This document shows, piece by piece, positions 49,094 through 64,000 of a stretch of DNA of 64,000 nucleotides (position 1 is the stretch's first letter; each line of letters starts with the position of its first letter). Location: assembly GCA_963805625.1 (NCBI GenBank), contig CAWDVE010000021.1, positions 320,001 through 384,000 on the forward strand, given 5' to 3'. This DNA is from an uncultured Candidatus Rokubacteria bacterium (GTDB lineage Bacteria > Methylomirabilota > Methylomirabilia > Rokubacteriales > DASRDR01). The position numbers were made by a program, and so were the translations under genes. Under the pieces are notes generated by a model. It was not told the DNA's origin. It did no database searches and saw nothing but the letters and a program-made list of their open reading frames with translations.

Positions 49094-50161
49094 CTACACG
49101 AGCCCGACCTGGCTCCGGTCCCCCAGCATGAGGTTGTAGGCGCGGGGCTTCGTGGCCGCGCGGTAGACGCGGACGCCCCGGCCGAGGAGGCTCGACTCGA
49201 TCCGCGCGCCCACGTCGGTCACCGACGAGCCCTCGAGGATGATCGAGTGCTCGATCTCGCTCCCGCGGATCGTCACGCCGTCCCCGAGGGCCGTGAAGGG
49301 CCCCACGTAGGCGTTCTCGATCACGGCGCCCCGGCCGATGATGGCCGGGCCGCGCACGACGCTCCGCACGACGCGCGCCTCCGCCTCGATCACCACCCGG
49401 CCGGTGACCTCGGAGTCCTCGACGAGGCCGTCGACGCGCCGGTCCAGCGTGTCGAGCACGATCCGGTTGGCCTCGAGGAGATCCTCGAGCTTCCCGGTGT
49501 CCTTCCACCACCCCTCGATCACGTGGGGGCGGACGGCCAGGCCGTGGTCGATGAGGTACTGGATGGCGTCGGTGATCTCGAGCTCGCCCCGCCCGGACGG
49601 CCGGATGCCCCGGGCCGCGTCGAAGATGTGGTCGTCGAACATGTACACGCCCACGAGCGCAAGATCGGACGGCGGCACGGGCGGCTTCTCGACGAGCCGC
49701 ACGACGCGGCCGCCCTCCAGGATGGCGACCCCGAACTCCTGGGGGTTCGGCACCTTCGCGAGCAGGATCTGGGCGGCGGGCGCCTCGGCCTGGAACCGCG
49801 CGACGAGCGGAGCCAGCGGCTCGCGTATCAGGTTGTCGCCGAGGTACATCACGAACGGCTGGCCCCGGAGGAATGGCTCGGCCGTCAGCACGGCGTGCGC
49901 CAGTCCAAGCGGGGCCTCCTGCGGGATGTAGGTGACCCGCACGCCCCAGCGGCTCCCGTCACCCACGGCGTCGCGGATCTCCTGGTGAGTATCGCCGACG
50001 ACGATCCCGACCTCCTCGAGGCCTGACGCGGCGAGCGCCTCGAGCCCGTAGAACAGGATGGGCTTGTTGGCGACCGGCACGAGCTGCTTGGCCGACGTGT
50101 AGGTGATCGGCCGGAGACGGGTGCCGCGCCCTCCCGAGAGGATCAGCCCGCGCATGCCCAT
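49094..50161 (-). CDS. Glucose-1-phosphate thymidylyltransferase, long form
   Basis: LSGGRGTRLRPIT...KQLVPVANKP; YLGDN; RGELEITD; WKDTG. Confidence 0.93.
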   Translation of the reverse strand: MGMRGLILSGGRGTRLRPITYTSAKQLVPVANKPILFYGLEALAASGLEEVGIVVGDTHQEIRDAVGDGSRWGVRVTYIPQEAPLGLAHAVLTAEPFLRGQPFVMYLGDNLIREPLAPLVARFQAEAPAAQILLAKVPNPQEFGVAILEGGRVVRLVEKPPVPPSDLALVGVYMFDDHIFDAARGIRPSGRGELEITDAIQYLIDHGLAVRPHVIEGWWKDTGKLEDLLEANRIVLDTLDRRVDGLVEDSEVTGRVVIEAEARVVRSVVRGPAIIGRGAVIENAYVGPFTALGDGVTIRGSEIEHSIILEGSSVTDVGARIESSLLGRGVRVYRAATKPRAYNLMLGDRSQVGLV

Positions 50162-50171
50162 CGCCCCCACA

Positions 50172-51572
50172 TCACCCGAGATGGCGGTGCTGCCACGCGC
50201 GGTAGAGCGTGAGGATCATGATCTTCAGGTCGAGCGCCAGCGACCAGTTCTGGATGTAGTAGAGATCGTACTCGATGCGCTTCTCAAGGGAGGTGTCCCC
50301 CCGAAGCCCGTTGACCTGTGCCCACCCCGTCAGCCCGGCCTTGACCTTGTGGCGCAGCATGTACTGCGGGATCCGCGTTTTGAACTGGTGGACGAAGAAC
50401 GGGCGCTCCGGCCGGGGCCCGACGAGGCTCATGTCCCCGGTGAGGACGTTCCAGAGCTGGGGCAGCTCGTCGATCGAGAAGCGCCGGAGCATCCGCCCGA
50501 ACCGGGTCGCCCGGCGGTCGCCGCGGCGCGCCCACACGGGTCCCGACCCGCCCTCGGTGCCCTCGGGCATCGTGCGGAACTTGACGATGTCGAACGAGCG
50601 CCCGTCGAGCCCCGTACGCTCCTGCCGGTAGAAGACGGACCCCGGCGACGTCAACCGGATCGTGAGGGCGATCGCGCCGAGGACCGGGGCCAGCAGGACC
50701 AGCCCGAGCGTCGCCAGCAAGAGGTCCATGCCTCGCTTGAGGAGGCGCGCCCAGCCGATGATGGGCGACTGCGCGAGGCTGATCACGGGTAAGCCCTCGA
50801 GCTCCTCGACGGCCGCTCGAAGCGTGACGAACTGGAGCACGTCCGGAACCATCTTGACGTCGACCAGCTCGCCCTCGATGGCGTTCAGGACCTTCAGCAC
50901 CTCGTGGTGCGCCTCGAGCGGCAGCGCCAGGAAGATCTGGTCCACGCGGTAGTCGGCGAGGACGCGCGTGACCGCCTCACACCCCCCGAGGACTTCCTTG
51001 CCCTCGATCCGCTCGCCGACGGGGATGCGGTCGTCGAGATAGCCCACCACGCGCACACCGAACTCCGGGTGGCCCCGGAGCCGGCGGGTGACCTCCTGGC
51101 CGAGATCCCCAGCCCCGACGACGAGCGCGCGACGGACGAAGCGCCCGTGGCGCCGGAGCGCGCGGACCACGTCGCGGATCGCGAGCCGGACGCCAAAGAC
51201 CGCGACGACGTCGAACGCCCAAAACACCAGCATGAACCAGCGCGAATAGGAGAAGCTCCGGAGGAAGAACGTCCCCGCCACCAGGAGGAGCGTGGCCAGC
51301 GTGACGCCCTGGAGCACGACGAAGGCCTCGTCGGCCTTGGTCCGCTCGTGGCGGTACTCGTAGAGACCCACCGCACGGAGCGACAGGGCGTGGAGCGGCA
51401 GGAGCAGCGCCAGGAGCAACAGATAGGGCTCCATCGGGGGGATCCCGAGCGGCGCCGGGATCATGTCGGCCCGGAAGCGGACGAAGTAGGCCGCGATGAG
51501 GGCGACGGCCCCCGCGAGGGCATCCCCCGCCGCGAGGGCAAGGACCAGCCAGAGCCGGCGTTCCTTCAGCAC
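50172..51572 (-). CDS. Undecaprenyl-phosphate sugar phosphotransferase (WcaJ-like)
   Basis: KFRTM; DELPQLWNVL.GDMSLVGPRPERP; GLTGWAQV; DLYYI. Confidence 0.95.
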   Translation of the reverse strand: MLKERRLWLVLALAAGDALAGAVALIAAYFVRFRADMIPAPLGIPPMEPYLLLLALLLPLHALSLRAVGLYEYRHERTKADEAFVVLQGVTLATLLLVAGTFFLRSFSYSRWFMLVFWAFDVVAVFGVRLAIRDVVRALRRHGRFVRRALVVGAGDLGQEVTRRLRGHPEFGVRVVGYLDDRIPVGERIEGKEVLGGCEAVTRVLADYRVDQIFLALPLEAHHEVLKVLNAIEGELVDVKMVPDVLQFVTLRAAVEELEGLPVISLAQSPIIGWARLLKRGMDLLLATLGLVLLAPVLGAIALTIRLTSPGSVFYRQERTGLDGRSFDIVKFRTMPEGTEGGSGPVWARRGDRRATRFGRMLRRFSIDELPQLWNVLTGDMSLVGPRPERPFFVHQFKTRIPQYMLRHKVKAGLTGWAQVNGLRGDTSLEKRIEYDLYYIQNWSLALDLKIMILTLYRAWQHRHLG

Positions 51573-52678
51573 GCGGCGCGCGACTCCTGGCCCGCGCCGA
51601 GCGCGGCCTCGACGAGCGCGGTCATCTCCGCCCGGAACCCCTCCTCGCCGAAGCGGAGCGCGTGCGCCCGAATCTTCTCGGCGCTCCAGCCCGTCACCTC
51701 GCCCTGCCCGAGCGCGTCAATCAGCGCCGCCGCCGTCTGCTCCCGGAAGAAAAGCCCGGTCACACCCTCCACCACCGTCTCGGTGAGGGCGCCCCGCCAG
51801 TAGGCGATGACCGGCCGCCCGGCCGCCGTCGCCTCGAGCGGCGCGATTCCGAACTCCTCCTCCCCGGGAAAGAGGAACGCGCGGCAGCGGGCGACCGCCA
51901 GGCGCACCGCCTCGTCGGGCTGCCATCCGAGGAAGCGCACCGTGGGGCCGGCGCGCCGGCGGAGCCGCGGAAGCTCGGGGCCCGTGCCGATGACGTCGAG
52001 CCGGCGCCCGAGCCGGGTGCACGCGTCCACCGCGAGGTCCACGCGCTTGTACGGCGTCAGCGCGGACACGCACAGGTATGCGTCGCCGACTGCGCCGGGC
52101 GCGACCGGCCGGAAGAACGCCGTCCGCACCGGGGGGTAGACGACACGCGCCTCCCGCTCCCAGACCCGCCGGATGCGGGCAGCCACGTGCCGCGAGATGC
52201 ACCCGAGGCGGCCAGCGCGCCGGCCGGCCGCGCGGTCCCACCGGCGGAGCGCGGCCAGGGCCACCCGGAGCGGCCCGCGTGCGAGCGGCGGCACCCGCCC
52301 CACGTAGGCACCTTCGAACGTCCACGCATAGCGCATCGGGGTGAAGCAGTAGACGACGTGCGCCGCGCCGGCGGGCGGCCGGGCCCCGACCGCGACGCAG
52401 TGGCTCGTCGCCAGGACGAGATCGTAGCCCCGGAGGTCGAAGCGGCGCACCGCGAGCGGGAACAGTGGTAGGTACTGGCGGAATCGACGCGGCGCGCCGG
52501 GCAGCCGCTGGATGAAGGACGTCCGGATGGGCCGCGCCTCGATGGCCGGCACGACGCTGCCGGGGACGTGGACGAGCGTGAAGATGTCCGCCGCGGGAAA
52601 GAGGCCGACCAGGGCCTCGAGGACGCGCTCCCCTCCCCGCATGCCGGTCAGCCAGTCATGGACCAGCGCGACCCGCAT
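51566..52678 (-). CDS. GT4 glycosyltransferase
   Basis: HDWLTGMRGGERV; EEFGIAPLEA. Confidence 0.93.
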   Translation of the reverse strand: MRVALVHDWLTGMRGGERVLEALVGLFPAADIFTLVHVPGSVVPAIEARPIRTSFIQRLPGAPRRFRQYLPLFPLAVRRFDLRGYDLVLATSHCVAVGARPPAGAAHVVYCFTPMRYAWTFEGAYVGRVPPLARGPLRVALAALRRWDRAAGRRAGRLGCISRHVAARIRRVWEREARVVYPPVRTAFFRPVAPGAVGDAYLCVSALTPYKRVDLAVDACTRLGRRLDVIGTGPELPRLRRRAGPTVRFLGWQPDEAVRLAVARCRAFLFPGEEEFGIAPLEATAAGRPVIAYWRGALTETVVEGVTGLFFREQTAAALIDALGQGEVTGWSAEKIRAHALRFGEEGFRAEMTALVEAALGAGQESRAAC

Positions 52679-52694
52679 CAGTCACCCACGTTCC

Positions 52695-53807
52695 TCAGGC
52701 CCCCAGCGCCTCACGGTAGACGGCGACCGTGGCTTCGGCGACGTGCCGCCACGAGAATGCGCGCGCGCGGGCCAGTCCACGGGCCCGGAGCGCGGCGCGG
52801 AGAGGTTCTTGACCGGCCAGAGTATACATAGCCTCACGCAGAGCGTCAACGTCGGTGGGGTTAACGAGCAGACCCGCATCGCCCACGACCTCGGGCAGAC
52901 CGCCTCGGTTCCCGGCGACGACGGGCGCGCCGCACGCCATCGCCTCGAGCGCCGCGAGCCCGAACCCTTCCCAGAGCGACGGGCACACCACGACGGTGGC
53001 GCTCTGGTAGAGACGCGCCAGGACGGGCGCCGGCACCGCGGCCAGCACGCGCACGCGACCCCCGAGGCCGGGCCTGGCACAGAGACCGTCGACCCAGGCG
53101 CGCGCGGCCGGCGGAATCCCCACCAGCACGAGCCGGCCCAGGACCGGGGGGAGCCCGGCGAAGGCGTCGAGGAGCCGGGTGACGTTCTTGTGCGGGAGCG
53201 GGTTGCCCACGAAGAGGAAATACGGCCGCGACACGCCGAGCTCGTCGAGCGTCGGGGCCGCGGTCCCGGAGGAATCGGCGGGCCCGAACGGCGCGCCCAC
53301 GCCGTTCGGGATCACACGGATCCGCTCCGGCCGGGCGCCGAGCCGCTCGACGAGGTCCCGGCGCGTGGACTCGGAGACGGTGATCAGCCGACGCGCCCGT
53401 CGCACCGCCAGGCGGAGCATCAGGCGCGCGTAGAGCGGCGCCAGGAGATGGCGATGGCGCACCGGGAAGCGAAGATGGATCAGGTCGTGCACGGTCACGA
53501 CCGCCGGACACGGGAGCCACGGCGGGCAGACGTAGTGCGGCGCGTGATAGAGATCGACCCGGTCTCGGCGCGCGGCGAGCGCGAGCTGCCAGAGCTCGGA
53601 CACGGAGTAGGGGCCCGCCGCCACCGGACGCCAGAGGGCACGCGCACCCCACGCCGCGGCAGCGGGCGCCGACGGCGGCCGGCCCGGCGGGAGATAGGCC
53701 ACCAGCCCCTCGGGCTGGCCCACCCCCGGAAGCGCCTCGAGGAGTCCCTGGATGTACGTGCCGATGCCGAAGTCGTCGATCTTGCGCGCGTCGACCGCGA
53801 CCTTCAT
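52695..53807 (-). CDS. GT4 glycosyltransferase
   Basis: MKVAVDAR...PHKN...EGFGLAALEAMACG. Confidence 0.93.
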   Translation of the reverse strand: MKVAVDARKIDDFGIGTYIQGLLEALPGVGQPEGLVAYLPPGRPPSAPAAAAWGARALWRPVAAGPYSVSELWQLALAARRDRVDLYHAPHYVCPPWLPCPAVVTVHDLIHLRFPVRHRHLLAPLYARLMLRLAVRRARRLITVSESTRRDLVERLGARPERIRVIPNGVGAPFGPADSSGTAAPTLDELGVSRPYFLFVGNPLPHKNVTRLLDAFAGLPPVLGRLVLVGIPPAARAWVDGLCARPGLGGRVRVLAAVPAPVLARLYQSATVVVCPSLWEGFGLAALEAMACGAPVVAGNRGGLPEVVGDAGLLVNPTDVDALREAMYTLAGQEPLRAALRARGLARARAFSWRHVAEATVAVYREALGA

Positions 53808-54955
53808 CGGTGGCTTCGCCGGCCGTGCACGGCCTCGTACACCGCCAGCGTCTGGCGGGCGACCGTGTTCCACTCGAACCGCGCCGCGCGCGCGTGCCCG
53901 CGTGCGATCAGGCGCTCCCGGAGCTCTCCGTCGGTGAGCACGGCCTCGATCGCCGTCGCGAGCTCGCCCGGCACGCGGGCGTCGACGAGGAGGGCCGCGT
54001 CGCCCGCCACCTCGGGGATCGAGCCCGCGCGGGCCGCGACCACCGGCGCGCCCGCGGCCATTGCCTCCAGCACCGGCAGCCCAAAGCCTTCGTAGAGGGA
54101 CGGAAAGACGAAGCACGTCGCGCCCGCATAGAGCGCCGGCAGGTCCGCGATCGGCACGTAGTCGGTGAACGCGACGGCGGTCCCGAGGCCGTGCTCCTCG
54201 ACGGCGCGAAAAATCCCGGCATGGAGCCAGGCTCGCGTCCCGGCGAGGACGAGCTGTGCCGAGCGGCCCGCGGTCCCGAGGCGCCGCCGCACCTCCGCGA
54301 ACGCCTCGATCAGCCCCGGTAGGTTCTTGCGCGGCTCGAGGTTCCCGACGAAGAGGCAGTAGGGGCGCTGGAGCCCGTAGCGGCGGACCACGGCGTCGAC
54401 CGCCTCGGGGGACAGGGGCCGGGCGAACTCCGGCCCGACCGCCTCGTGGATCACGACGATCTTGGACGGGGGCACGCGGAGGATCTCCACGAGATCGGCC
54501 TTCGTGGCCTCGGACACAGCGATGATCCGATCCGCGGACCTCACGGCGAGCCGCGTCATGAGGCGCATGTAGAGGCTGTACTTCCGCGGCACGGTCTCGG
54601 GGAACAGGAACGAGACCAGGTCGTGGATCGTGACGACGGTGCGGTAGCCGAGCTTCACGTGCGGCAGGAAGACGGCCGGGCCGTGGTAGACGTCCGTCCG
54701 GAGGGTGCGAAGCCGGAGCGGCAGGTAGCCGAGGAGCCAGAGATCCCCCCGGAGATGGTCCTCGAAGGACACGCGGGTCGGCAACGCCGCGACGTTGGCC
54801 TGGCGGACCGGCAGCCCCGGGCCATCGGCCGCCACGAGGCACGTGTAGCGGTTGTCGTGATCGATCGTCGCGAGCCCAGTGAGGAGGCGCTGGGCATACG
54901 CGCCCACGCCCGACTGGCGCCGCGCGATGTACCGGGCGTCGAGGACGACGTGCAT
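53804..54955 (-). CDS. GT4 glycosyltransferase
   Basis: MHVVLDARY...EPRKN...YEGFGLPVLEAM. Confidence 0.93.
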   Translation of the reverse strand: MHVVLDARYIARRQSGVGAYAQRLLTGLATIDHDNRYTCLVAADGPGLPVRQANVAALPTRVSFEDHLRGDLWLLGYLPLRLRTLRTDVYHGPAVFLPHVKLGYRTVVTIHDLVSFLFPETVPRKYSLYMRLMTRLAVRSADRIIAVSEATKADLVEILRVPPSKIVVIHEAVGPEFARPLSPEAVDAVVRRYGLQRPYCLFVGNLEPRKNLPGLIEAFAEVRRRLGTAGRSAQLVLAGTRAWLHAGIFRAVEEHGLGTAVAFTDYVPIADLPALYAGATCFVFPSLYEGFGLPVLEAMAAGAPVVAARAGSIPEVAGDAALLVDARVPGELATAIEAVLTDGELRERLIARGHARAARFEWNTVARQTLAVYEAVHGRRSHR

Positions 54956-56409
54956 CACCCCACCCCCGCCGCGGAGGTCGGGCCGGAGCGGCCGAGGGCG
55001 CCGCGCAGGAGCCGCAGGCAGACCGAGCGCGGGATGGGCCGCAGCACGATGAGCGCCACCGCGTACGCGAGGAGAGCGCCGGCGAGCCGGCCGGCGCCCG
55101 CCGGCAGGAGATTCGCGACAGCCAGGCCGGCCGCGGCGGCGGCCAGGCCCTTGGCCGCCCCGCGCCCGAGCGGCCAGCCGGCAAGCCGACGGACGCCCAC
55201 GAGACTCGCGGCCAGGGTCACGCCCTCCACGACCAGGACGCCGACGGCCGCGCCCAGGGCTCCGCCTGCCGCCACGAGGCCCGGGATGGCGGCGAGCCCC
55301 GTCACGAACGCCAGCGTCGCGACCGCGCGCAGCCGACGGGGCCGATCGAGCGCCAGCAACACGACCCCGAGAAGGTGTCCCAGCATCGCGCAGGCGACGG
55401 CGGCGCCCAGGACCGCCAGGACCGGGCCCGTGGGACCGTACCCGACCCCGTAGATCCGCGGCGTCAGCCAGGACGCGCCCACGCCGAGCCCAAGGGCGAT
55501 CGGCAAGGCGACGAGCAGTAAGGCCTCGAACGCCTGGGTCGTGAGCGCCCGGAAACGCGGGAGCGCGGGCGGCGTCCGCGCCAGCACCGGGAAGACGGCC
55601 GCCTCCAGGCTCGCGAGCACGACCCACGCGACGTCGTAGACGCGGAACGCCGCCCCGAAGTGCCCCGCGGCCTGGTCGCCCGTGAGGAGCACGAGGGCGA
55701 CGGGCGCCAGGCGCGAGGTGGCGACGCCGAGGAACTGCGCCTGAGCGACCGGGGCCAGCTCCCGGGCCAGGCTCCGCGCCCCCGCGGGGCGCCACCACCG
55801 GTCGAGCGGGGCGACCCGGCGATGGATGCGCCCGATCGCGAAGACGAGCGACACGGCCGGGGCCAGGACGAACGCCGCCGCGATCCCGAGGAGCCCGGCA
55901 CCGAGCCCGAGGGCGGCGAAGCCGACCGTCACGAGCACGCCCTTCTCCAGGAGGCGCATCTGAAATTCCTGCTCGAGCCGCTGGACCGCCGTGAAGATGG
56001 ACACCCCGTTCTCGAGGAACGCCTGGAGCGTGATGGCCAGGCCGAGGAGCCACACGGCCGCCGTCGTGTCCCACGGGCGATGCAGGAGGAGGGGCACGGC
56101 GAGATAGACGGGCCCGACCAGGCCCAGCAGGAGGAGCTTCAAGGTCGACGCCGTCCCCCATCGCTCGGCGGTCGCGCCCGGGTCCCGCGCCACCGCCCGC
56201 GTGAGCACGACCGAGATGCCGAAGTCGAGCGCGATCCCCAGGACCGTCGCCAGGGCGTACGCGAAAGTGAACTTGCCGAACTCGGCGGGGCCGATGACCC
56301 GCGCGGTGACGATGATGAGGACGAGGGATCCGAACCGGGTCGCCTGGCCCAGGACCTTGAGGGCCGCGCTTCGCGCGACGCGCTCGGCGCTGCCTGGTGC
56401 CGCGATCAT
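54955..56409 (-). CDS. Wzx-like polysaccharide flippase
   Basis: Many TM helices; ARVIGPAEFG...DFGI; lies within a glycosyltransferase cluster. Confidence 0.88.
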   Translation of the reverse strand: MIAAPGSAERVARSAALKVLGQATRFGSLVLIIVTARVIGPAEFGKFTFAYALATVLGIALDFGISVVLTRAVARDPGATAERWGTASTLKLLLLGLVGPVYLAVPLLLHRPWDTTAAVWLLGLAITLQAFLENGVSIFTAVQRLEQEFQMRLLEKGVLVTVGFAALGLGAGLLGIAAAFVLAPAVSLVFAIGRIHRRVAPLDRWWRPAGARSLARELAPVAQAQFLGVATSRLAPVALVLLTGDQAAGHFGAAFRVYDVAWVVLASLEAAVFPVLARTPPALPRFRALTTQAFEALLLVALPIALGLGVGASWLTPRIYGVGYGPTGPVLAVLGAAVACAMLGHLLGVVLLALDRPRRLRAVATLAFVTGLAAIPGLVAAGGALGAAVGVLVVEGVTLAASLVGVRRLAGWPLGRGAAKGLAAAAAGLAVANLLPAGAGRLAGALLAYAVALIVLRPIPRSVCLRLLRGALGRSGPTSAAGVG

Positions 56410-57503
56410 GCCGCCGCCGCCCGGTAGACTGCCAGGGTCTCGCGCGCCGTGCGCGCCCAGGAGAACTCGGCCGCGCGCGCGAGGCCGGCCGAGCGTAGCC
56501 GCTCCCGCAAGGCCGGCTCGGCAAGGAGCCGCGCGAGGGCGTCGGCCAGCGGCTCGGGCGCGGGGTCGACCAGTAGCGCCCCGCCCGCTGTCACCTCGGG
56601 CAACGCCCCTCGGTTGGAGGCAACGACGGGCGCGCCGGTCGCCATCGCCTCGAGGGCCGGCAGTCCGAACCCCTCCCACAGCGACGGAAACGCGAACGCG
56701 AGCGCCCCGCCGTAGAGGGCCGGCAGGTCGGCGTCCGGCGCCGCGCCAACGAAGCGAACCGCACCGTCAATCCCGAGCGCGTGAGCACGCCGGGCTGGGT
56801 CCGGGCCCCAGCCGGGCGCCCCCACGACCACGAGCTCGGTCTCGCCCCACACGCGGGCGCGACGCAGCCGGGCCACGGCGTCGAGGAGGACGTCCAGGTT
56901 CTTCTTCGGCTCGAGGAAGCCAACGAACAGGACGTACGGGCGGATGAGCCCGTAGCGGGCGCGCGCCGCGGCGAGCGCCGCCGGACCGGGGGGCACGAAG
57001 TGAGGCGCGGCGGCCTCGGGCACGACCACGACGCGCGCGGGCGGCAGACGATAGCGGGCCAGGATTTCTCCCCGCGTCGTCTCCGAGACTGCGATGACGC
57101 GGGAGGCCCGGCGCAGCGCCCCGCCCAGGAGACACCGGACGGCCCACCGATGCCGGGCAGGCACGAGGCCCGGCAAGCGAAACGGCACCAGGTCGTGGAC
57201 CGTGGTCACAAGCGCCCACGGCCCGCGGCCCGGTAGCTCGAATCCTGTCACGCCGTGGAAGACGTCGACGGGGCGCCGCCGAAGGTCCCGGGGGGCGTGC
57301 CAGAGAGACCAGAGGAGCCGCTGGGGCCATGGCAGGCACCGCACCTCCGCCCCGCCGAGGGTCGGCCCGGGAGCGCGATCGACATAGAGGATCCACTGCT
57401 CCTCCGGGGCAAGCTGGAGGAGGTGCTCCATCAGAGAGCGGGTGTATCGACCGATCCCGCTCCGGGGCTCCGCCCAAAGCCTCGCGTCGATCGCGATGCG
57501 CAT
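56406..57503 (-). CDS. GT4 glycosyltransferase
   Basis: MRIAIDAR...EPKKN...WEGFGLPALEAM. Confidence 0.93.
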   Translation of the reverse strand: MRIAIDARLWAEPRSGIGRYTRSLMEHLLQLAPEEQWILYVDRAPGPTLGGAEVRCLPWPQRLLWSLWHAPRDLRRRPVDVFHGVTGFELPGRGPWALVTTVHDLVPFRLPGLVPARHRWAVRCLLGGALRRASRVIAVSETTRGEILARYRLPPARVVVVPEAAAPHFVPPGPAALAAARARYGLIRPYVLFVGFLEPKKNLDVLLDAVARLRRARVWGETELVVVGAPGWGPDPARRAHALGIDGAVRFVGAAPDADLPALYGGALAFAFPSLWEGFGLPALEAMATGAPVVASNRGALPEVTAGGALLVDPAPEPLADALARLLAEPALRERLRSAGLARAAEFSWARTARETLAVYRAAAA

Positions 57504-57690
57504 CTATCAGCCAACATTAGCCAATTTTTGATTCTTACCCGGGCGACTCAGTCTAGCCCGCCCCAGAGGATGGCTCAAGGAAGAAATATCCACCTGGACC
57601 CGATCGGGATATGTGGTAATGTCTCCATTCGGGCGGGCCGAGGGGGGCTCGGCCCTGGCTCGATCACCCGCGCGCCTGAGGAGTTACCTG

Positions 57691-58884
57691 ATGAAGACGT
57701 ATCGCGATCTCGTCGCCGAGGCCAAGCGCGCCATCCCCGAGGTCACCGTGGAGAACGTGCACGCCCGTCTCGCCCGGGGCGAGACCCTGGCCCTCATCGA
57801 CGTCCGGGATCCGGACGAGTACCGGGAGGGGGCCGTCGCCGGCGCCGTGCCGATCAGTCGCGGCTTCCTCGAGTTCAAGGTCCCGGAGGCCTTCCCCGAC
57901 CCTGAGACCCCGCTGGTGCTCTACTGCCTGTCTGGGCTCCGCTCGCTGCTCGCGGGCAAGGTGCTCCACGACCTCGGGTACACCAACGTGACCTCGATGG
58001 CGGGGGGCATCCGGCGCTGGAAGGAGCTGAAGCTCCCGCTCGTCAAGGACCAGCCGCTCACGTCGGACCAGATGGAGCGCTACAGCCGCCACTTCATGCT
58101 GGCGCAGGTGGGTGAGCCGGGGCAGAAGCAGCTCCTCCGGTCGAAGGCCCTCCTGATCGGCGCGGGGGGGCTCGGCTCGCCGGCCGCATTCTACCTCGCC
58201 GCCGTCGGCGTGGGCACGCTCGGCATCGTCGACGATGACGTCGTCGACCTGTCGAACCTCCAGCGTCAGATTCTCCACCGGACGTCGGACATCGGCCGGC
58301 CGAAGGTCGAGTCCGCCCGGGACTCGATCACGGCGCTCAATCCCGACGTAACAGTAATCCCGTACGCCGAGCGACTGACCGTGGACAATATCGAGCGGAT
58401 CATCAAGGACTACGACGTCATCGTGGACGGGTCGGACAACTTCGCGACCCGGTACCTCGTCAACGACGCCTGCTACCTTGCCGGCAAGCCGAACGTCCAC
58501 GGCTCGATCTTCCAGTTCGAGGGCATGGTCACGGTGCTGGCGCCCGACCGCGGGCCCTGCTACCGCTGTCTCTACCCCGTCCCGCCTCCCGCCGGGCTCG
58601 TCCCGTCCTGAAACGAAGCCGGCGTCCTGGGCGTGCTCCCGGGACTCATCGGAGTGGTGCAGGCGACCGAAACCGTCAAGTTGCTCCTCGGTAAGGGGGA
58701 GTCGCTGATCGGCCGGCTCCTGACGTACGACGCGCTCGGGATGCGCTTCCGCGAAGTGCGGCTTCGCCGGGACCCGAAGTGCCCGCTCTGCGGCGAGGCG
58801 CCGGTGATCCGCGACCTGTCGATCCACGCGGCGGGCGACGAAGCGTGCGCGGAGCCGTCTCCGGCGACGCCGGTGGCCCGCTAA
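57691..58884 (+). CDS. moeB: Rhodanese-MoeB/ThiF adenylyltransferase with in-frame TGA (candidate Sec307) at 58609-58611
   Basis: ORFs 57613..58611 and 58633..58884 share a frame. LYCLSGLRS; GAGGLG; SNLQRQ; CYRC; VPS*NEAGVLGVLPG; CPLC. GAGGAG RBS before ATG 57691. Confidence 0.9.
58624..58645 (+). promoter_or_regulatory. Candidate SECIS-like hairpin
   Basis: GUCCUGGG-CGUGCU-CCCGGGAC forms an 8-bp stem with 1 G-U pair, starting 12 nt after the UGA. Confidence 0.55.
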
Positions 58885-58900: not shown

Positions 58901-59998
58901 TCAGCGCGGCGGGCGCGGCGGGCGCGGCGGCGCGGCCTCGTCCGGGAAGCGGCCGACCGTCACGGTCAGCTCCTGGGCCTGACCGTCCCGCCAGAGCGAG
59001 ACCCGCACCGGCGTCCCCACCGGCGTGATCGAGATGACCCGCTGGAGCTCCCGCGGGCTGGCGATGACCCGGCCGTCCACCTCCAGGATCACGTCCTTGG
59101 CCCGGATCCCCGCCTGGGCCGCCGGCTGTCCCGGCAGGACGCCCTCGATGCCGACGCCGCGCGGTGCCTCGAGCCCGTAGTCCCGGACGTTGTCCTCGGT
59201 GATCTCGTCGATGCGCACGCCGAGCCATCCCCACTCGACCGTGCCCTTGGCGAGGAGCTGCGGGAGGAGCGTCTTGATCAGGTTGATCGGGATGGCGAAC
59301 CCGATCGAACCGTTGCGCGCGGCCATGGTGTTGACGCCGACGACCTGCCCACCCATATCGACCAGCGGGCCGCCGGAGTTGCCGGGATTCACGGCCGCGT
59401 CGGTCTGGATGAAGTCGAACCCCGGGGCCGCCGCCTGGAGCGGCGCGCCCTTCCGGCTCACGATCCCGAGCGACACGGTCTGCTCGAGCCCGAACGGGTG
59501 CCCGAGCGCGAGCACGAGCTCCCCGACCGCGAGCCGCTCGGAGTCGCCGAGCGGGAGTACGGGTAGCGCCTCCGACGCGTCCACCTTCACCAGGGCCAGG
59601 TCCACGCGCCGGTCCCGCCCGATGACGGTCCCTGCAAGGCGCCGCCCCGCGGCCAGCCGCACCTGGACCGATGTCGAGCCCTCGACGACGTGGGCGTTGG
59701 TGACGACGTACCCGTCGGGGTGAATGACGAACCCCGAGCCGAGCGCCCGTCGTGGGCCCTCTTCGGGGTCCGGCTCCTCGGTTGGCCGCTGGACGCGGAT
59801 CTGGACCAGCGCCGGCTTCAGCCGCTCCGCGAGGCGGGTCAGCGCCGTGTTGAGCCGGACGAGCTCCGGCTCCGGCGAGACGCCTGGCCCCTCGCGCCAG
59901 AGTTGCGCCGGGGGCGCCCCCGCCGGCTGAGCCGCGACCGGGCCCGCGAGCGCGAGGCCCGCAACGACGCCGAGGATCCACCGCCCAACCGCCCTCAT
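58901..59998 (-). CDS. HtrA/DegP-family serine protease with one PDZ domain
   Basis: TNAHVV; DLAL; NPGNSGGPL; GWLGV. Confidence 0.95.
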   Translation of the reverse strand: MRAVGRWILGVVAGLALAGPVAAQPAGAPPAQLWREGPGVSPEPELVRLNTALTRLAERLKPALVQIRVQRPTEEPDPEEGPRRALGSGFVIHPDGYVVTNAHVVEGSTSVQVRLAAGRRLAGTVIGRDRRVDLALVKVDASEALPVLPLGDSERLAVGELVLALGHPFGLEQTVSLGIVSRKGAPLQAAAPGFDFIQTDAAVNPGNSGGPLVDMGGQVVGVNTMAARNGSIGFAIPINLIKTLLPQLLAKGTVEWGWLGVRIDEITEDNVRDYGLEAPRGVGIEGVLPGQPAAQAGIRAKDVILEVDGRVIASPRELQRVISITPVGTPVRVSLWRDGQAQELTVTVGRFPDEAAPPRPPRPPR

Positions 59999-60071: not shown

Positions 60072-60614
60072 CTATCGGCCGAGGAGGCCGGCGATGTGCG
60101 AGAGCTCGGGCAGGATCAGCCGCTCGACCGCGAGCCGGCACGCGGCCGGCGAGCCGGGCAAGGAAAAGACCACCCGACCCGCCCGCACCCCCGCCTGGGC
60201 GCGGGAGAGCATCGCGGCCGATCCGATCTCCTGATAGGAGAGCAGCCGGAACAGCTCGCCAAACCCGGGCAGACGCTTCTCCAGCAAGGTGTCGATCGCC
60301 TCGAAGGTCTGGTCGCGGGGCGCGATACCCGTGCCGCCCGTGAAGATCACGGCCTGGACTCCGGGATGGGAGCACGCCTGGTGGATGACCGCGTGCACCT
60401 GGCTCGGCTCGTCGCGCACGAGGTGGTAGCCCACTACCTCGTGGCCGGCGCCGGCGAGGAGCTCGCGAATGAGGCGGCCGCTCGTATCGGTCTCGAGGGT
60501 CTTCGAGTCCGAGACCGTGCACACCACGCAGCGGACCCGCGTCGGGGCGTGGGCCTTGTGCTCGTCGACGGGCGACCGCCCGGGGGCTCCGGCCGGCGCG
60601 CCGGGCTCCGTCAC
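60072..60614 (-). CDS. moaB: MoaB/MogA molybdenum cofactor biosynthesis protein
   Basis: TVSD...DTSG; TGGTG..PRDQT; PGFGELFR; LSRA; LPGSP. Confidence 0.92.
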   Translation of the reverse strand: MTEPGAPAGAPGRSPVDEHKAHAPTRVRCVVCTVSDSKTLETDTSGRLIRELLAGAGHEVVGYHLVRDEPSQVHAVIHQACSHPGVQAVIFTGGTGIAPRDQTFEAIDTLLEKRLPGFGELFRLLSYQEIGSAAMLSRAQAGVRAGRVVFSLPGSPAACRLAVERLILPELSHIAGLLGR

Positions 60615-61966
60615 GGCGGCGAGCGCTCCGCCGCCGCATACGCCCGGTCCAGGACCTCGACGACGTGGAGCACCTCCACGTCTCGCCCGCGCGCGCGGAG
60701 GCCGGCGGCCAGCTGCAGGATGCAGCCCGGGTTCGCCGTCACCACGGTCGCGGCGCCCGTGGCCTCAACGTGAGCCATCTTGCGATCGAGCAGCCGCTGC
60801 GCCATCACGGGCTCGGTCAGATTGTAGATCCCCGCCGAGCCGCAGCACATCTCGGCCTCGCCGAGCTCGACCAGCTCGAGTCCGGGCACGGCCCGCAAGA
60901 GCGCGCGGGGCGCGCTCCGGACCTGCTGCCCGTGCGCCAGGTGACACGGGTCGTGATACGTCGCGCGGAGCGGGAGCGGCCCGAGCGGCTCCGCCAGCGG
61001 CGCGCGCGCGAGGAACTCGGTGACGTCCACGACCTTCCGGGCGAAGGCCGCCGCGCGCCCGGCCCATGCCGGATCCCCTCGGAGCAGATGCCCGTAGGCT
61101 TTCATGTGTGCCCCGCACCCGGCGGCGTTGACCACGACGGCCTCGAGCTCCGCGGGCTCGAACGCGGTGATGGTGGCGCGGGCCAGGGCGCGGGCGCGCT
61201 CGGGCTCGCCCGCGTGAGCGTGGAGCGCGCCACAGCAGCCCTGGGCGCGCGGGACCCGCACCTCCACGCTCTGGCGCACGAGGCACCGGATAGTCGCCTC
61301 GTTGTGCGGGCGGAACACCGCGTCCTGCACGCACCCGTGAAGGAGCCCCACCCGCCCCCGCGGCGCCCCGCGCGCCGGGATCGTCTCGGGCAGGGCTCCG
61401 CTCCGCCCCGCCGGTGGAAGCGGCGGCAGAAGCGCCTCTGACGCCGCGAGGGTCGCCGGAAACAGGCGCAGGAGGCCGCTCGCCCGGACGAGGCGCTGGA
61501 GCCCGCTCCGCTGGTAGACGCGGAGCGCGCCCGCGACGAGGCGCAGGAGGGCCGGTCGGGGCAGGAGACCGTCGAACGCAGCGCGCCGCACCAGGCGCCG
61601 CGCCGGAGCGCCCGGGCGCCTCGCCTCGAGCTCGGCGCGGGCCGCCTCGATCAGGTGACCGTAGGGCACCCCCGAGGGACACGCGCTCTCGCACGCCCGG
61701 CATCCAAGGCAGAGCGAGAGATGCTCGGCCGCGGAATCGCCGAGCGCGATCCGGCCGTCGGCGAGCGCCTTGATGAGGTAGATGCGGCCGCGCGGCGAGT
61801 CCGGCTCCTGCCCGAGCTCGGCGTACGTGGGGCAGCTCGGCAGACACAAGCCACAGTGGACGCACTGGAGGAGCTGCCCGTACTCGAGCTCGGCGAGGAC
61901 GCCCGGCCGCCGGGCCGCGGGCGGCGGCCCGCCCGGCGGGGTGGAGGTGGTCGTCGCCGTTGTCAT
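60611..61966 (-). CDS. glcF: Glycolate oxidase Fe-S subunit
   Basis: CVHCGLCLPSCP; CLGCRACESACP; two CCG domains. Confidence 0.92.
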   Translation of the reverse strand: MTTATTTSTPPGGPPPAARRPGVLAELEYGQLLQCVHCGLCLPSCPTYAELGQEPDSPRGRIYLIKALADGRIALGDSAAEHLSLCLGCRACESACPSGVPYGHLIEAARAELEARRPGAPARRLVRRAAFDGLLPRPALLRLVAGALRVYQRSGLQRLVRASGLLRLFPATLAASEALLPPLPPAGRSGALPETIPARGAPRGRVGLLHGCVQDAVFRPHNEATIRCLVRQSVEVRVPRAQGCCGALHAHAGEPERARALARATITAFEPAELEAVVVNAAGCGAHMKAYGHLLRGDPAWAGRAAAFARKVVDVTEFLARAPLAEPLGPLPLRATYHDPCHLAHGQQVRSAPRALLRAVPGLELVELGEAEMCCGSAGIYNLTEPVMAQRLLDRKMAHVEATGAATVVTANPGCILQLAAGLRARGRDVEVLHVVEVLDRAYAAAERSPP

Positions 61967-61985
61967 GCGCCGCGCGCCCGGCCCA

Positions 61986-63329
61986 TCAGATCCCGCCCAC
62001 GAAGCGGCCGGGATTCAGGACGCCCTGCGGGTCGAGCCGCGCCTTCAGCCCCCGCATGAGATCCACGCCCGGCCCCGGAGGATCCCACACCGGGCACGCC
62101 TCGCGCACGCCGAGCGGCGCCCACTCGACGGCAAGATGCCCGCCGCGCGCCCGCGCGGCATCGCGCCACGCGGCCAGCACCACGGCCGTGGCGGCGGCTG
62201 GGCGGGGGGCGCCGCCAGGGGCGAGGACGAGCGTCACAAGCCCGTGGCCCGCGTGCGCGACCGTGGCGAGCTCGAACCCTCCCGCCTGGGCGGTCGTCTG
62301 GGCCGCCCCGAGGTAGGCCCCGACCTCCGCCGGGACCACGCCCACGGTGGCGATCGCCACCGGGCTTGCGAGAAGACGTCGCGTCTCGCGCACGGCCCCG
62401 AGCGCGCGCGCCGTCCCGCCGGCGTCGAGCGCCTCGACGGCGCGCGCCCCGGCCCCACGAAGACGCCGCGCCGCCTCCTCCCTCTCCCACGCGACGGCGC
62501 GGGCGAGGCCGTCGAACGCGACCAGGACGGCGGGGGCGGCGGCGGCCGGGAGGCCGACCACCGGCGCGCAGGCGTCGGCCGCCCGCGCGTCCAGCAGCGT
62601 GAGCGCCACCGGTCCGAGCTCCGAGCCCGCGAGGACCCCCGCCGCGCCCGCCGCCGCGTCGAGGCTGGCGAACGTCGCCCAGCAGGCGCCCTCCGCCTCC
62701 GGCCGGGGGCGGAGCTTGAGCGTCGCGTCCACGATGATGCCGAGCGTGCCGAGGGATCCAATGTAGAGCTTCACGAGATCGTAGCCGGCCACGTTCTTCA
62801 CGACCTTCCCACCCGCCCGGATCAGCTGGCCATCGGCCGCCACGACGCGCATCCCGATGACGAGGTCCCGCGCGGTGCCGTACCCGTGCCGCCGGGGCCC
62901 GGCGGCGTTGGCCGCCAGGACGCCCCCGAGCGTTGCCGTTCCGGGCGCCGGGGGATCGAGCGGGAGCCACTGGCCGCCCGTCCCCAGCGCAGCCTGGAGC
63001 GCGTCAAGCGTGATCCCGGCCTCGGCCGTGGCGGTGAGGTCGCCCGGCTCATGCTCGAGGACGCGCCCGAGGCGCCGGAGGCCGACGACGAGCGCGCCGT
63101 CCCGCGGCGGGGTGCCCCGGGACATCTGGGTCCCCCCGCCCCACGGGACCACCGGCACCCCCACCGCCGCGGCGGCCCGCACCACCCGCGCCACCTCGTC
63201 GGCCGAGCCCGGCAGCACGACCCCGCACGGGGTGCGCCCGTCCACGACGTACGGCGCGCGATCGGCGCCGCCCAGGCAGTGGGCGGGGCCGACGATCTCG
63301 GCGAGACTCCGGAGCAGGGTAGCGGTCAT
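61986..63329 (-). CDS. glcE: Glycolate oxidase FAD-binding subunit
   Basis: GGKVVKNVAGYDL.KL..GSLGTLG; DPQGVLNPGR. Confidence 0.88.
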   Translation of the reverse strand: MTATLLRSLAEIVGPAHCLGGADRAPYVVDGRTPCGVVLPGSADEVARVVRAAAAVGVPVVPWGGGTQMSRGTPPRDGALVVGLRRLGRVLEHEPGDLTATAEAGITLDALQAALGTGGQWLPLDPPAPGTATLGGVLAANAAGPRRHGYGTARDLVIGMRVVAADGQLIRAGGKVVKNVAGYDLVKLYIGSLGTLGIIVDATLKLRPRPEAEGACWATFASLDAAAGAAGVLAGSELGPVALTLLDARAADACAPVVGLPAAAAPAVLVAFDGLARAVAWEREEAARRLRGAGARAVEALDAGGTARALGAVRETRRLLASPVAIATVGVVPAEVGAYLGAAQTTAQAGGFELATVAHAGHGLVTLVLAPGGAPRPAAATAVVLAAWRDAARARGGHLAVEWAPLGVREACPVWDPPGPGVDLMRGLKARLDPQGVLNPGRFVGGI

Positions 63330-63355
63330 GCGAGCCGGCGCACCCGGGGCGCGCC

Positions 63356-64000
63356 CTACAGGCGCTGGATCAGCCCGCTCGCCTCGAGCGGATGCGGCTG
63401 GTAGGCGATCTCCCCGGGGGCGCAGGACTTGCGCGTCGGGAAGACCTTGCCGGGGTTGCACCGCCCGGTGGGATTGAACACGGCCTTGATCGCGGCCATC
63501 GTGGCGAGATCGGCCTCGGAGAAGATCCACGGCATGAAGTCGCGCTTCTCGAGGCCGATGCCGTGCTCGCCCGAGATCGTGCCCCCCACGTCCACACAGG
63601 CCCGCATGATCTCGGCGCCCGCGGCCAGCACCCGCGCCTCCTCGCCCGGCTTCTGCGGGTCGTAGAGGATGTTCGGGTGGAGGTTACCGTCGCCCGCGTG
63701 AAAGACGTTCCCGACCCGGAGCGCGTGAGCCGTGACGATCCGCTCGATGTGGCGCAGGACCTCGGGGAGCCGCGTCCGCGGGATCACGCCGTCCATCACC
63801 ATGTACGCGGGCGCGATCCGCCCGTAGGCGCCGAAGGCGTGCTTGCGCCCCTTCCACAGAAGCTGACGCTCGGATTCGTTCTGGGCGAGCCGAACCTCCC
63901 GCGCGCCGCTCTCGCGGCAGGCGGCGGCCACGCGCGCGGCCTCCTCGTCGAGCCCGGCGTCGAGCCCGTCCAGTTCGATGAGGAGCGCCGCCGCCGCATC
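63356..64000 (-). CDS. glcD: Glycolate oxidase subunit, C-terminal part (start lies beyond the window)
   Basis: FHAGDGNLHP; SGEHGIG; CNPGK; frame open to base 64000. Confidence 0.9.
   Translation of the reverse strand, partial: DAAAALLIELDGLDAGLDEEAARVAAACRESGAREVRLAQNESERQLLWKGRKHAFGAYGRIAPAYMVMDGVIPRTRLPEVLRHIERIVTAHALRVGNVFHAGDGNLHPNILYDPQKPGEEARVLAAGAEIMRACVDVGGTISGEHGIGLEKRDFMPWIFSEADLATMAAIKAVFNPTGRCNPGKVFPTRKSCAPGEIAYQPHPLEASGLIQRL

Follow-up and report, generated by a model that had tools for sequence, protein, structure and literature searches.

A gene for a rhodanese-fused MoeB protein in the genome of an uncultured Rokubacteriales bacterium carries an in-frame UGA, at codon 307, that is almost certainly decoded as selenocysteine (Sec). 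In the best explanation we have for it, which we hold with moderate confidence, the enzyme relays its carrier proteins from a selenoester on Sec307 to a persulfide on Cys79 and then to the thiocarboxylate. The gene lies in the window, by which we mean the whole stretch of 64,000 nucleotides that was analyzed, and an earlier note on this DNA had already proposed Sec at the crossover-loop cysteine of a rhodanese-fused sulfur-carrier activating enzyme. That proposal is now supported by the alignment column in which the UGA falls, its conservation among relatives, the freezing of the codons downstream and the sel genes of the genome.

The frame at 57691–58884 on the forward strand has 397 codons and a single internal stop, the TGA at 58609–58611 (peptide context VPS*NEAGVLG). 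It stays open for 90 further codons, which supply the motif CPLC; the single TGA, the intact frame after it and CPLC are as the note had described. The features in and around the gene are as follows.

57678..57683, forward strand: Shine-Dalgarno-like GAGGAG, 7 nt 5' of the ATG (seen in the sequence, its function presumed)
57691..58884, forward strand: rhodanese-MoeB gene, 397 aa with UGA as Sec (NCBIfam NF006444, 536.7 bits, cut-off 449)
57748..58026, forward strand: N-terminal rhodanese domain, aa 20–112 (Pfam PF00581, E 2.7e-15)
57925..57927, forward strand: rhodanese active-loop Cys79, codon TGC, a putative persulfide carrier judging from its family
58081..58785, forward strand: ThiF/MoeB adenylation domain, aa 131–365, spanning the UGA (Pfam PF00899, positions 1–237 of 238, E 3e-86)
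58159..58176, forward strand: nucleotide-binding loop GAGGLG, aa 157–162 (alignment to MoeB, ThiF and Uba4)
58558..58569, forward strand: first zinc-binding CxxC, CYRC, aa 290–293 (sequence and alignment)
58609..58611, forward strand: in-frame UGA, codon 307, predicted selenocysteine at the crossover-loop Cys column (alignment, conservation, short-read contig)
58619..58652, forward strand: predicted bacterial SECIS (fold, rule test, codon invariance, pair counts)
58780..58791, forward strand: second zinc-binding CxxC, CPLC, aa 364–367, which needs read-through of the UGA (sequence and alignment)
58901..59998, reverse strand: convergent htrA-like protease gene (context)
60072..60614, reverse strand: moaB-like gene, on the strand opposite to moeB (context)

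The NF006444 match covers residues 4–374 of the read-through protein, whose adenylation domain aligns to residues 4–249 of 1JW9. The adenylation residues named for MoeB are Gly41, Arg73, Lys86 and Asp130 (PMC12355090); equivalents of all four are retained in the alignment, as are the nucleotide loop, both CxxC motifs and the rhodanese Cys. The fold appears clear from the alignment, and the gene likely encodes one full-length sulfur-carrier activating enzyme.

Codon 307 aligns with Cys187 of E. coli MoeB, Cys184 of ThiF and the crossover-loop Cys of Uba4 (residue numbers counted from alignments), the MoeB and ThiF column being the one to which the note had assigned the UGA. The TGA is not a sequencing error, since it stands at this column in all 42 genes checked among the TGA-flagged orthologues and a short-read contig from run X2, covering 58213–58660 with the TGA included, shows no differences; X2 may be the source sample, so its match tests the base call and not independent occurrence. 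A contig from run X1, over 58498–58828, has two differences, neither listed at codon 307, and contigs from the RNA run X15 cover parts of the gene, none of them bridging the UGA. That the short-read contigs show TGA, and not TGC or TGT, disposes of the doubt that the note had raised about the base call. An internal TGA is listed for all 53 orthologues found in 61 genomes. Where loci were fetched it is at the codon 307 column in 30 of 30, and likewise in 12 of 12 further TGA-flagged genomes, giving the 42 Methylomirabilota orthologues checked at the column, among which there are kin, so that they are not independent. The column, the 53 of 53 orthologues and the X2 contig together place the position of the UGA beyond chance. 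Across the phylum, 126 of 170 genomes match at E 1e-110 and 116 of the 126 have a copy with an internal TGA (these figures include the unpublished G055, which is one of the 30 loci, G093 and G108; leaving the three out gives 29 of 29 and 113). The other 10 have copies without TGA only, three of them in the same order, where the TGA copy is kept in 112 of 115 matching genomes. Close relatives, then, do not all have Cys, which the note had named as a possibility that would count against its proposal. Among 80 named homologous loci the column holds TGA in 15 and TGC or TGT in 65.

The 8-bp hairpin that the note had reported 12 nt after the UGA is there as described: an upper stem (58624–58631 with 58638–58645) containing one G–U pair, to which a weaker lower stem (58619–58622 with 58649–58652) can be added. 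The 6-nt loop, CGUGCU at 58632–58637, comes 20 nt after the UGA and has G at its second position. A rule for bacterial SECIS elements, given in extracts of PMC13188914, specifies a loop of 3–9 nt, a stem of 4–16 bp, G in the first two loop positions, a distance of 16–37 nt from the UGA and an energy of at most −7.5 kcal/mol. In our own implementation of that rule, which is not bSECISearch, the hairpin passes (loop 6, stem 8, spacing 20, −13.1 kcal/mol), as do 30 of 30 TGA orthologues. So, too, do 27 of 65 Cys homologues and 583 of 3956 ordinary Cys codons, which makes the hairpin by itself weak evidence; as sole proof the rule was dropped for being too loose. Folding energy is unremarkable (z −0.25 to −1.40 across five windows) and, not being significant, was dropped as evidence as well. 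Codon freezing is the stronger test. Codons 312–316, the core of the hairpin, are identical in 30 of 30 TGA genes, set against one invariant column among 163 other four- or six-fold codon columns (mean pairwise codon identity 0.55), and the 17-nt core occurs in none of the 65 Cys genes although 42 of them encode the same six residues. Across 14 TGA sequences none of the inner six pairs is broken: five never vary, and there is a single U–A/U–G change; the outer two are broken in 8 and 5 of the 14, and no compensatory change on both sides of a pair was found among these sequences. Three more distant TGA genes have a shifted stem and a 7-nt loop.

The sel genes on which the proposal depended are all present: selA (above cut-off), selC, selD and selB, the last once completed by a short-read contig. 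selA, selB and tRNA-Sec (selC) form a cluster some 150 kb upstream of the rhodanese-MoeB gene, on the same contig as the window. The UCA tRNA scores 76.9 bits to tRNA-Sec and has an 8-bp acceptor stem and a G discriminator, and selD has an in-frame TGA and hairpin of its own. As assembled, selB is frameshifted, split at G000:C21:223609-225488 (L126:5589-7501, − strand) with one base missing in a C/G homopolymer run. It is whole in five of five relatives and the X2 contig over it carries the missing base with no other difference, so the frameshift is very likely an assembly slip, and the idea of a broken Sec machinery was rejected on the same evidence. The missing base does mean that this assembly holds indel errors able to mimic broken genes. 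In the phylum selA is found in 152 of 170 genomes; at E 1e-100 there was no match in 14 of the 116 TGA genomes. Twelve of these 14 are published, all of them fragmented assemblies, and when they were re-searched five showed a piece of selA or, at the end of a contig, an entire selB, while neither gene was found in the remaining seven. Because all 12 assemblies are fragmented and the sel genes form one cluster, a missing contig is the likely reason for these absences.

A read-through scan of the genome gave 204 candidates, 35 of which pass the SECIS rule. Sixteen were picked by eye, and four of them pass NCBIfam cut-offs for selenoprotein-type families (GrdA selenoprotein A, YciW-related, PDO_seleno_TRX and WAxxUGC), one, at the dapA/dapB junction, was a false positive made up of two adjacent genes, and the rest were below cut-off or unmatched. 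Some 14 further in-frame UGA genes with hairpins 16–23 nt downstream (L159–L170, L173, L174) are spread over contigs C1, C4, C10, C11, C14, C16, C17, C19 and C24 of the genome (G000). They include GrdA, proteins resembling peroxiredoxin and thioredoxin, a UGSC-like protein, a rhodanese fusion and a flavin disulfide reductase whose UGA falls at a redox Cys position.

Selenoproteins of this sort have a history. A "molybdopterin biosynthesis MoeB protein" family of 11 sequences was predicted from the Sargasso Sea in 2005 by Zhang, Fomenko and Gladyshev (PMC1088965), appeared again in GOS in 2008 with 19 sequences (PMC2398784), and is listed in reviews of 2022 (PMC9312934) and 2026 (PMC13188914), the latter giving MBT7809913.1, with one Sec, as its example; all four sources are cited from extracts. 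The note had suspected that a Sec-containing MoeB might already be in the surveys, and the 2005 survey, with its UGA at the same column, proves it right. The 2005 family has the same MoeB/ThiF domain as our gene (COG0476/PF00899), and in seven of seven entries compared, of the 11, the UGA comes after VPS and before GVLGVLPG and the hairpin core is near-identical. With the TGA at the same column and nearly the same core, the gene belongs to that family, though with another domain order, and is not a new kind. The Sargasso sequences have the rhodanese C-terminal to the MoeB domain (complete in three of six proteins, cut short in the others), whereas the Rokubacteriales gene has it at the N terminus; and where the 2026 inventory, in its extracts, has one Sec for MoeB, five relatives of our gene have two UGAs. 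Those second UGAs are one of two less ordinary aspects of the system, the other being that a sole MoeB/ThiF-type enzyme is usual in a sister family.

The domain order is that of NF006444 (PRK08762), the rhodanese-MoeB adenylyltransferases, whose cut-off the gene exceeds; the family has a Cys codon at the crossover loop in those 65 of 80 named loci, whereas our gene has UGA. Uba4 of yeast and MOCS3 of humans likewise join an adenylation domain to a rhodanese and share the two CxxC motifs and a crossover-loop nucleophile at the same column, but their rhodanese is C-terminal, the nucleophile is Cys and not Sec, and the partner of Uba4 is Urm1. By analogy, Uba4 would be the best model for how the gene product works, without the gene being a member of the Uba4/MOCS3 group. 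The adenylation domains of E. coli MoeB and ThiF align over their full length; these enzymes have no rhodanese and one carrier each. The read-through protein falls below the cut-offs of TIGR02355 (231.2 against 376.55) and TIGR02356. Thermus thermophilus TtuC is a single E1-like enzyme common to several carriers and is not described as a selenoprotein in the extracts of PMC3980101; there the sharing was shown, whereas for the rhodanese-MoeB of the sister family we infer it. Our literature searches turned up nothing relevant on Rokubacteria selenoproteins, and the main text of the deep-Sep paper (PMC12013277) does not mention MoeB. Deng et al. (2026), as cited in a review, describe groundwater selenoproteomes that include a Methylomirabilota genome with 63 selenoproteins, and they or Haft and Tolstoy (2025) may already list these genes.

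A second TGA, at the position of rhodanese Cys79, is found in four genomes of the order belonging to four genera (G058, loci L036/L153; G174, L135; G152, L134; G025, L127) and in a Planctomycetota record (L060), five double-UGA genomes in total. In all four the same 7-bp hairpin, with no sequence difference, follows this TGA at 18 nt; the SECIS rule is passed at the Cys79 position by three of 29 single-TGA genes. Going by its sequence, the double-UGA gene is a candidate double-selenocysteine enzyme, and no two-Sec MoeB was found in our literature searches. Four of the five genomes gave a selA match, and a search of G025 found no selA, selB or tRNA-Sec. Variation also runs the other way. Cys-307 copies occur in six genomes of the order, three of which have no other copy and three of which have a TGA copy too. 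A quick tree with partial support (100 rows, built without bootstrap, with 30 of 130 distant rows dropped to thin the set and G055 omitted) scatters the Cys copies over several positions among the TGA genes, which suggests reversions. Sec is evidently not indispensable, given that Cys versions are nested among Sec ones and that three genomes with selA have the Cys version only. In three genomes a second-type selD, 46–48% identical to the source genome's own and Cys-type in the one read, adjoins rhodanese-MoeB (L151:4032-5078, L136:3590-4801, L137:6108-7379), and other Cys-type MoeB copies stand next to genes for thioredoxin, glutathione peroxidase or OsmC (L138, L139, L140); these loci are possibly selenium-independent backup sets.

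Which carriers does the enzyme serve? Quite probably several, and not MoaD alone. In a sister family, f2, sampled as 23 high-completeness genomes chosen among those known to match, the TGA gene is present in 21. None of the 21 has another full-length MoeB-like gene, and 17 of them have no other PF00899 match above cut-off. Each of these genomes has 3–11 ThiS-family genes in addition to the TGA gene, and it is from this pairing of a sole MoeB-like gene with many carrier genes that a general activator suggests itself. The source genome has six ThiS-family genes, some of which are neighbors of moaE, of thiG, of a cysteine synthase accompanied by a JAB peptidase, of a threonine-synthase-like gene and of selC. 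It also has a second MoeB, Cys-containing and with neither a rhodanese match nor such a hairpin, directly following the carrier of the threonine-synthase-like operon.

How, then, might the enzyme work? SelB with Sec-tRNA would almost certainly bind the hairpin and insert Sec at 307. From homology, the ThiF domain would very probably adenylate the C-terminal glycine of ubiquitin-like carriers of the MoaD, ThiS and CysO types. Sec307 may then attack the acyl-adenylate to give a selenoester, with the carrier passing to the Cys79 persulfide and a reductive step releasing the thiocarboxylate; by analogy with Uba4 we think this course of events reasonably probable. Selenolate is a better nucleophile and a better leaving group than thiolate. 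In Uba4, C225 forms a thioester and C397 then an acyl-persulfide, and E. coli MoeB/MoaD uses no thioester (both from extracts of PMC6007339 and PMC7527816). This last point counts against the best explanation, as do the N-terminal rhodanese, unlike that of Uba4, and the second, Cys-containing MoeB in the genome. Literature searches found no biochemical study of Sec-MoeB, and no evidence of Sec at the protein level was found either.

The main rival has Sec acting after sulfur transfer, resolving an acyl-persulfide or guarding the active site against oxidation and stray conjugation, with no selenoester on the main path, and we judge it unlikely without dismissing it. E. coli ThiF Cys184 reportedly forms an acyl-disulfide with ThiS, and most other UGA genes of the genome encode thiol-redox proteins. 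According to extracts of PMC7527816 the same Cys helps to resolve reactive intermediates during oxidative stress, and those of PMC6007339 mention earlier reductive-cleavage models besides the MoeB/MoaD case. In the rhodanese-fused Uba4, however, the same Cys is the thioester site, and release did not need the second Cys (PMC6007339, extracts). A more skeptical position is that Sec is nearly neutral, the residue being dispensable or Cys its equal, and that the UGA persists as the coding of VLGVLPG easily forms a SECIS. E. coli MoeB Cys187 is said to be dispensable, and the Cys homologues that already pass the SECIS rule and the Cys groups nested among Sec genes in the quick tree lean the same way. 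The TGA copy retained nearly throughout the order and the frozen hairpin codons imply selection nonetheless, and we find near-neutrality improbable.

Still less do we credit the idea that the enzyme moves selenium, making selenocarboxylated carriers for selenium metabolism, which we regard as highly improbable. A ThiS-family gene lies just upstream of selC, selD adjoins the gene in three of 47 loci searched, and five genomes have UGA at both reactive positions. Yet two of the three selD neighbors flank Cys versions, the one read encodes a Cys-type SelD, and ordinary sulfur carriers have this enzyme as their only activator in most genomes of the sister family. Sec in enzymes is, moreover, normally catalytic and not cargo. 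It is scarcely credible, finally, that the UGA is a true stop, through truncation, pseudogene formation or sequencing error, or that it is decoded as Cys or Trp. Of the 120 closest database homologues 73 end at the UGA codon, and selB is frameshifted as assembled; a standard gene caller would, however, give such truncated records anyway. A 306-aa product would lose some 60 residues of the domain together with the second zinc CxxC, and the frame downstream of the UGA is conserved across the order. Genome-wide recoding was rejected, TGA terminating 1503 of 2245 long coding frames, and the UCA tRNA scores as tRNA-Sec. What those 73 database proteins call for is a correction of annotation, a core enzyme of an abundant soil lineage having been recorded as truncated.

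A natural Sec at an E1-type crossover Cys offers a handle on the debated covalent ester intermediate in bacterial MoeB-type enzymes, and the Cys, single-Sec and double-Sec versions, at 65–70% identity, lend themselves to direct comparison. Should this enzyme be the only carrier activator in most of the order, several sulfur cofactor pathways would be limited by the supply of selenium. We put forward, tentatively and as something we rather doubt than believe, that in most Rokubacteriales the sole activator of ubiquitin-like sulfur carriers is a selenoenzyme that uses a selenoester, with a few lineages running a two-Sec relay (two UGAs, two SECIS hairpins). Were that true, the molybdenum cofactor, thiamine and carrier-based cysteine synthesis would all depend on selenium. 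No description of a two-selenium relay for sulfur was found in our literature searches.

The gene stands alone, with a divergent glycosyltransferase gene on one side and the convergent htrA on the other. The note had placed it near moaB, which holds for distance (1.2 kb), but the link is weak, since moaB lies beyond htrA and on the other strand; an operon was rejected on orientation. A tie to moaB and molybdopterin alone, as the note implied, is not supported. moaD-moaE is on another contig, and two queries against 47 loci found no cysO- or moaD-like gene beside any TGA gene. htrA and moaB are convergent with rhodanese-MoeB in 18 of the 47 loci, many of which are too short to tell, and the upstream polysaccharide genes are likewise retained at relatives' loci; the neighborhood looks like conserved gene order. 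Its outer parts are ordinary. On the reverse strand at 60611–64000, glcD/glcE/glcF-like glycolate oxidase genes lead into moaB and htrA on one strand, and at 49094–57503, also reverse, a polysaccharide cluster divergent from moeB holds a nucleotidyltransferase, a sugar transferase, GT4 glycosyltransferases and a flippase-like gene.

Some carrier genes elsewhere in the genome deserve mention. One gene of the ThiS/MoaD family, with a GG ending (G000:C21:228323-228493; L126:10321-10560), is found immediately upstream of tRNA-Sec, on the strand of selC, selA and selB. About 4 kb before the operon of the threonine-synthase-like gene, a GGW carrier and the Cys-type MoeB is selD (G000:C10:162221-168707; L125). 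The MoaD-like carrier L131:1489-1740 and the CysO-like carrier L125:12580-12858 continue past GG (GGAA and GGW) and would have to be trimmed; the genome does have a JAB peptidase gene (L130).
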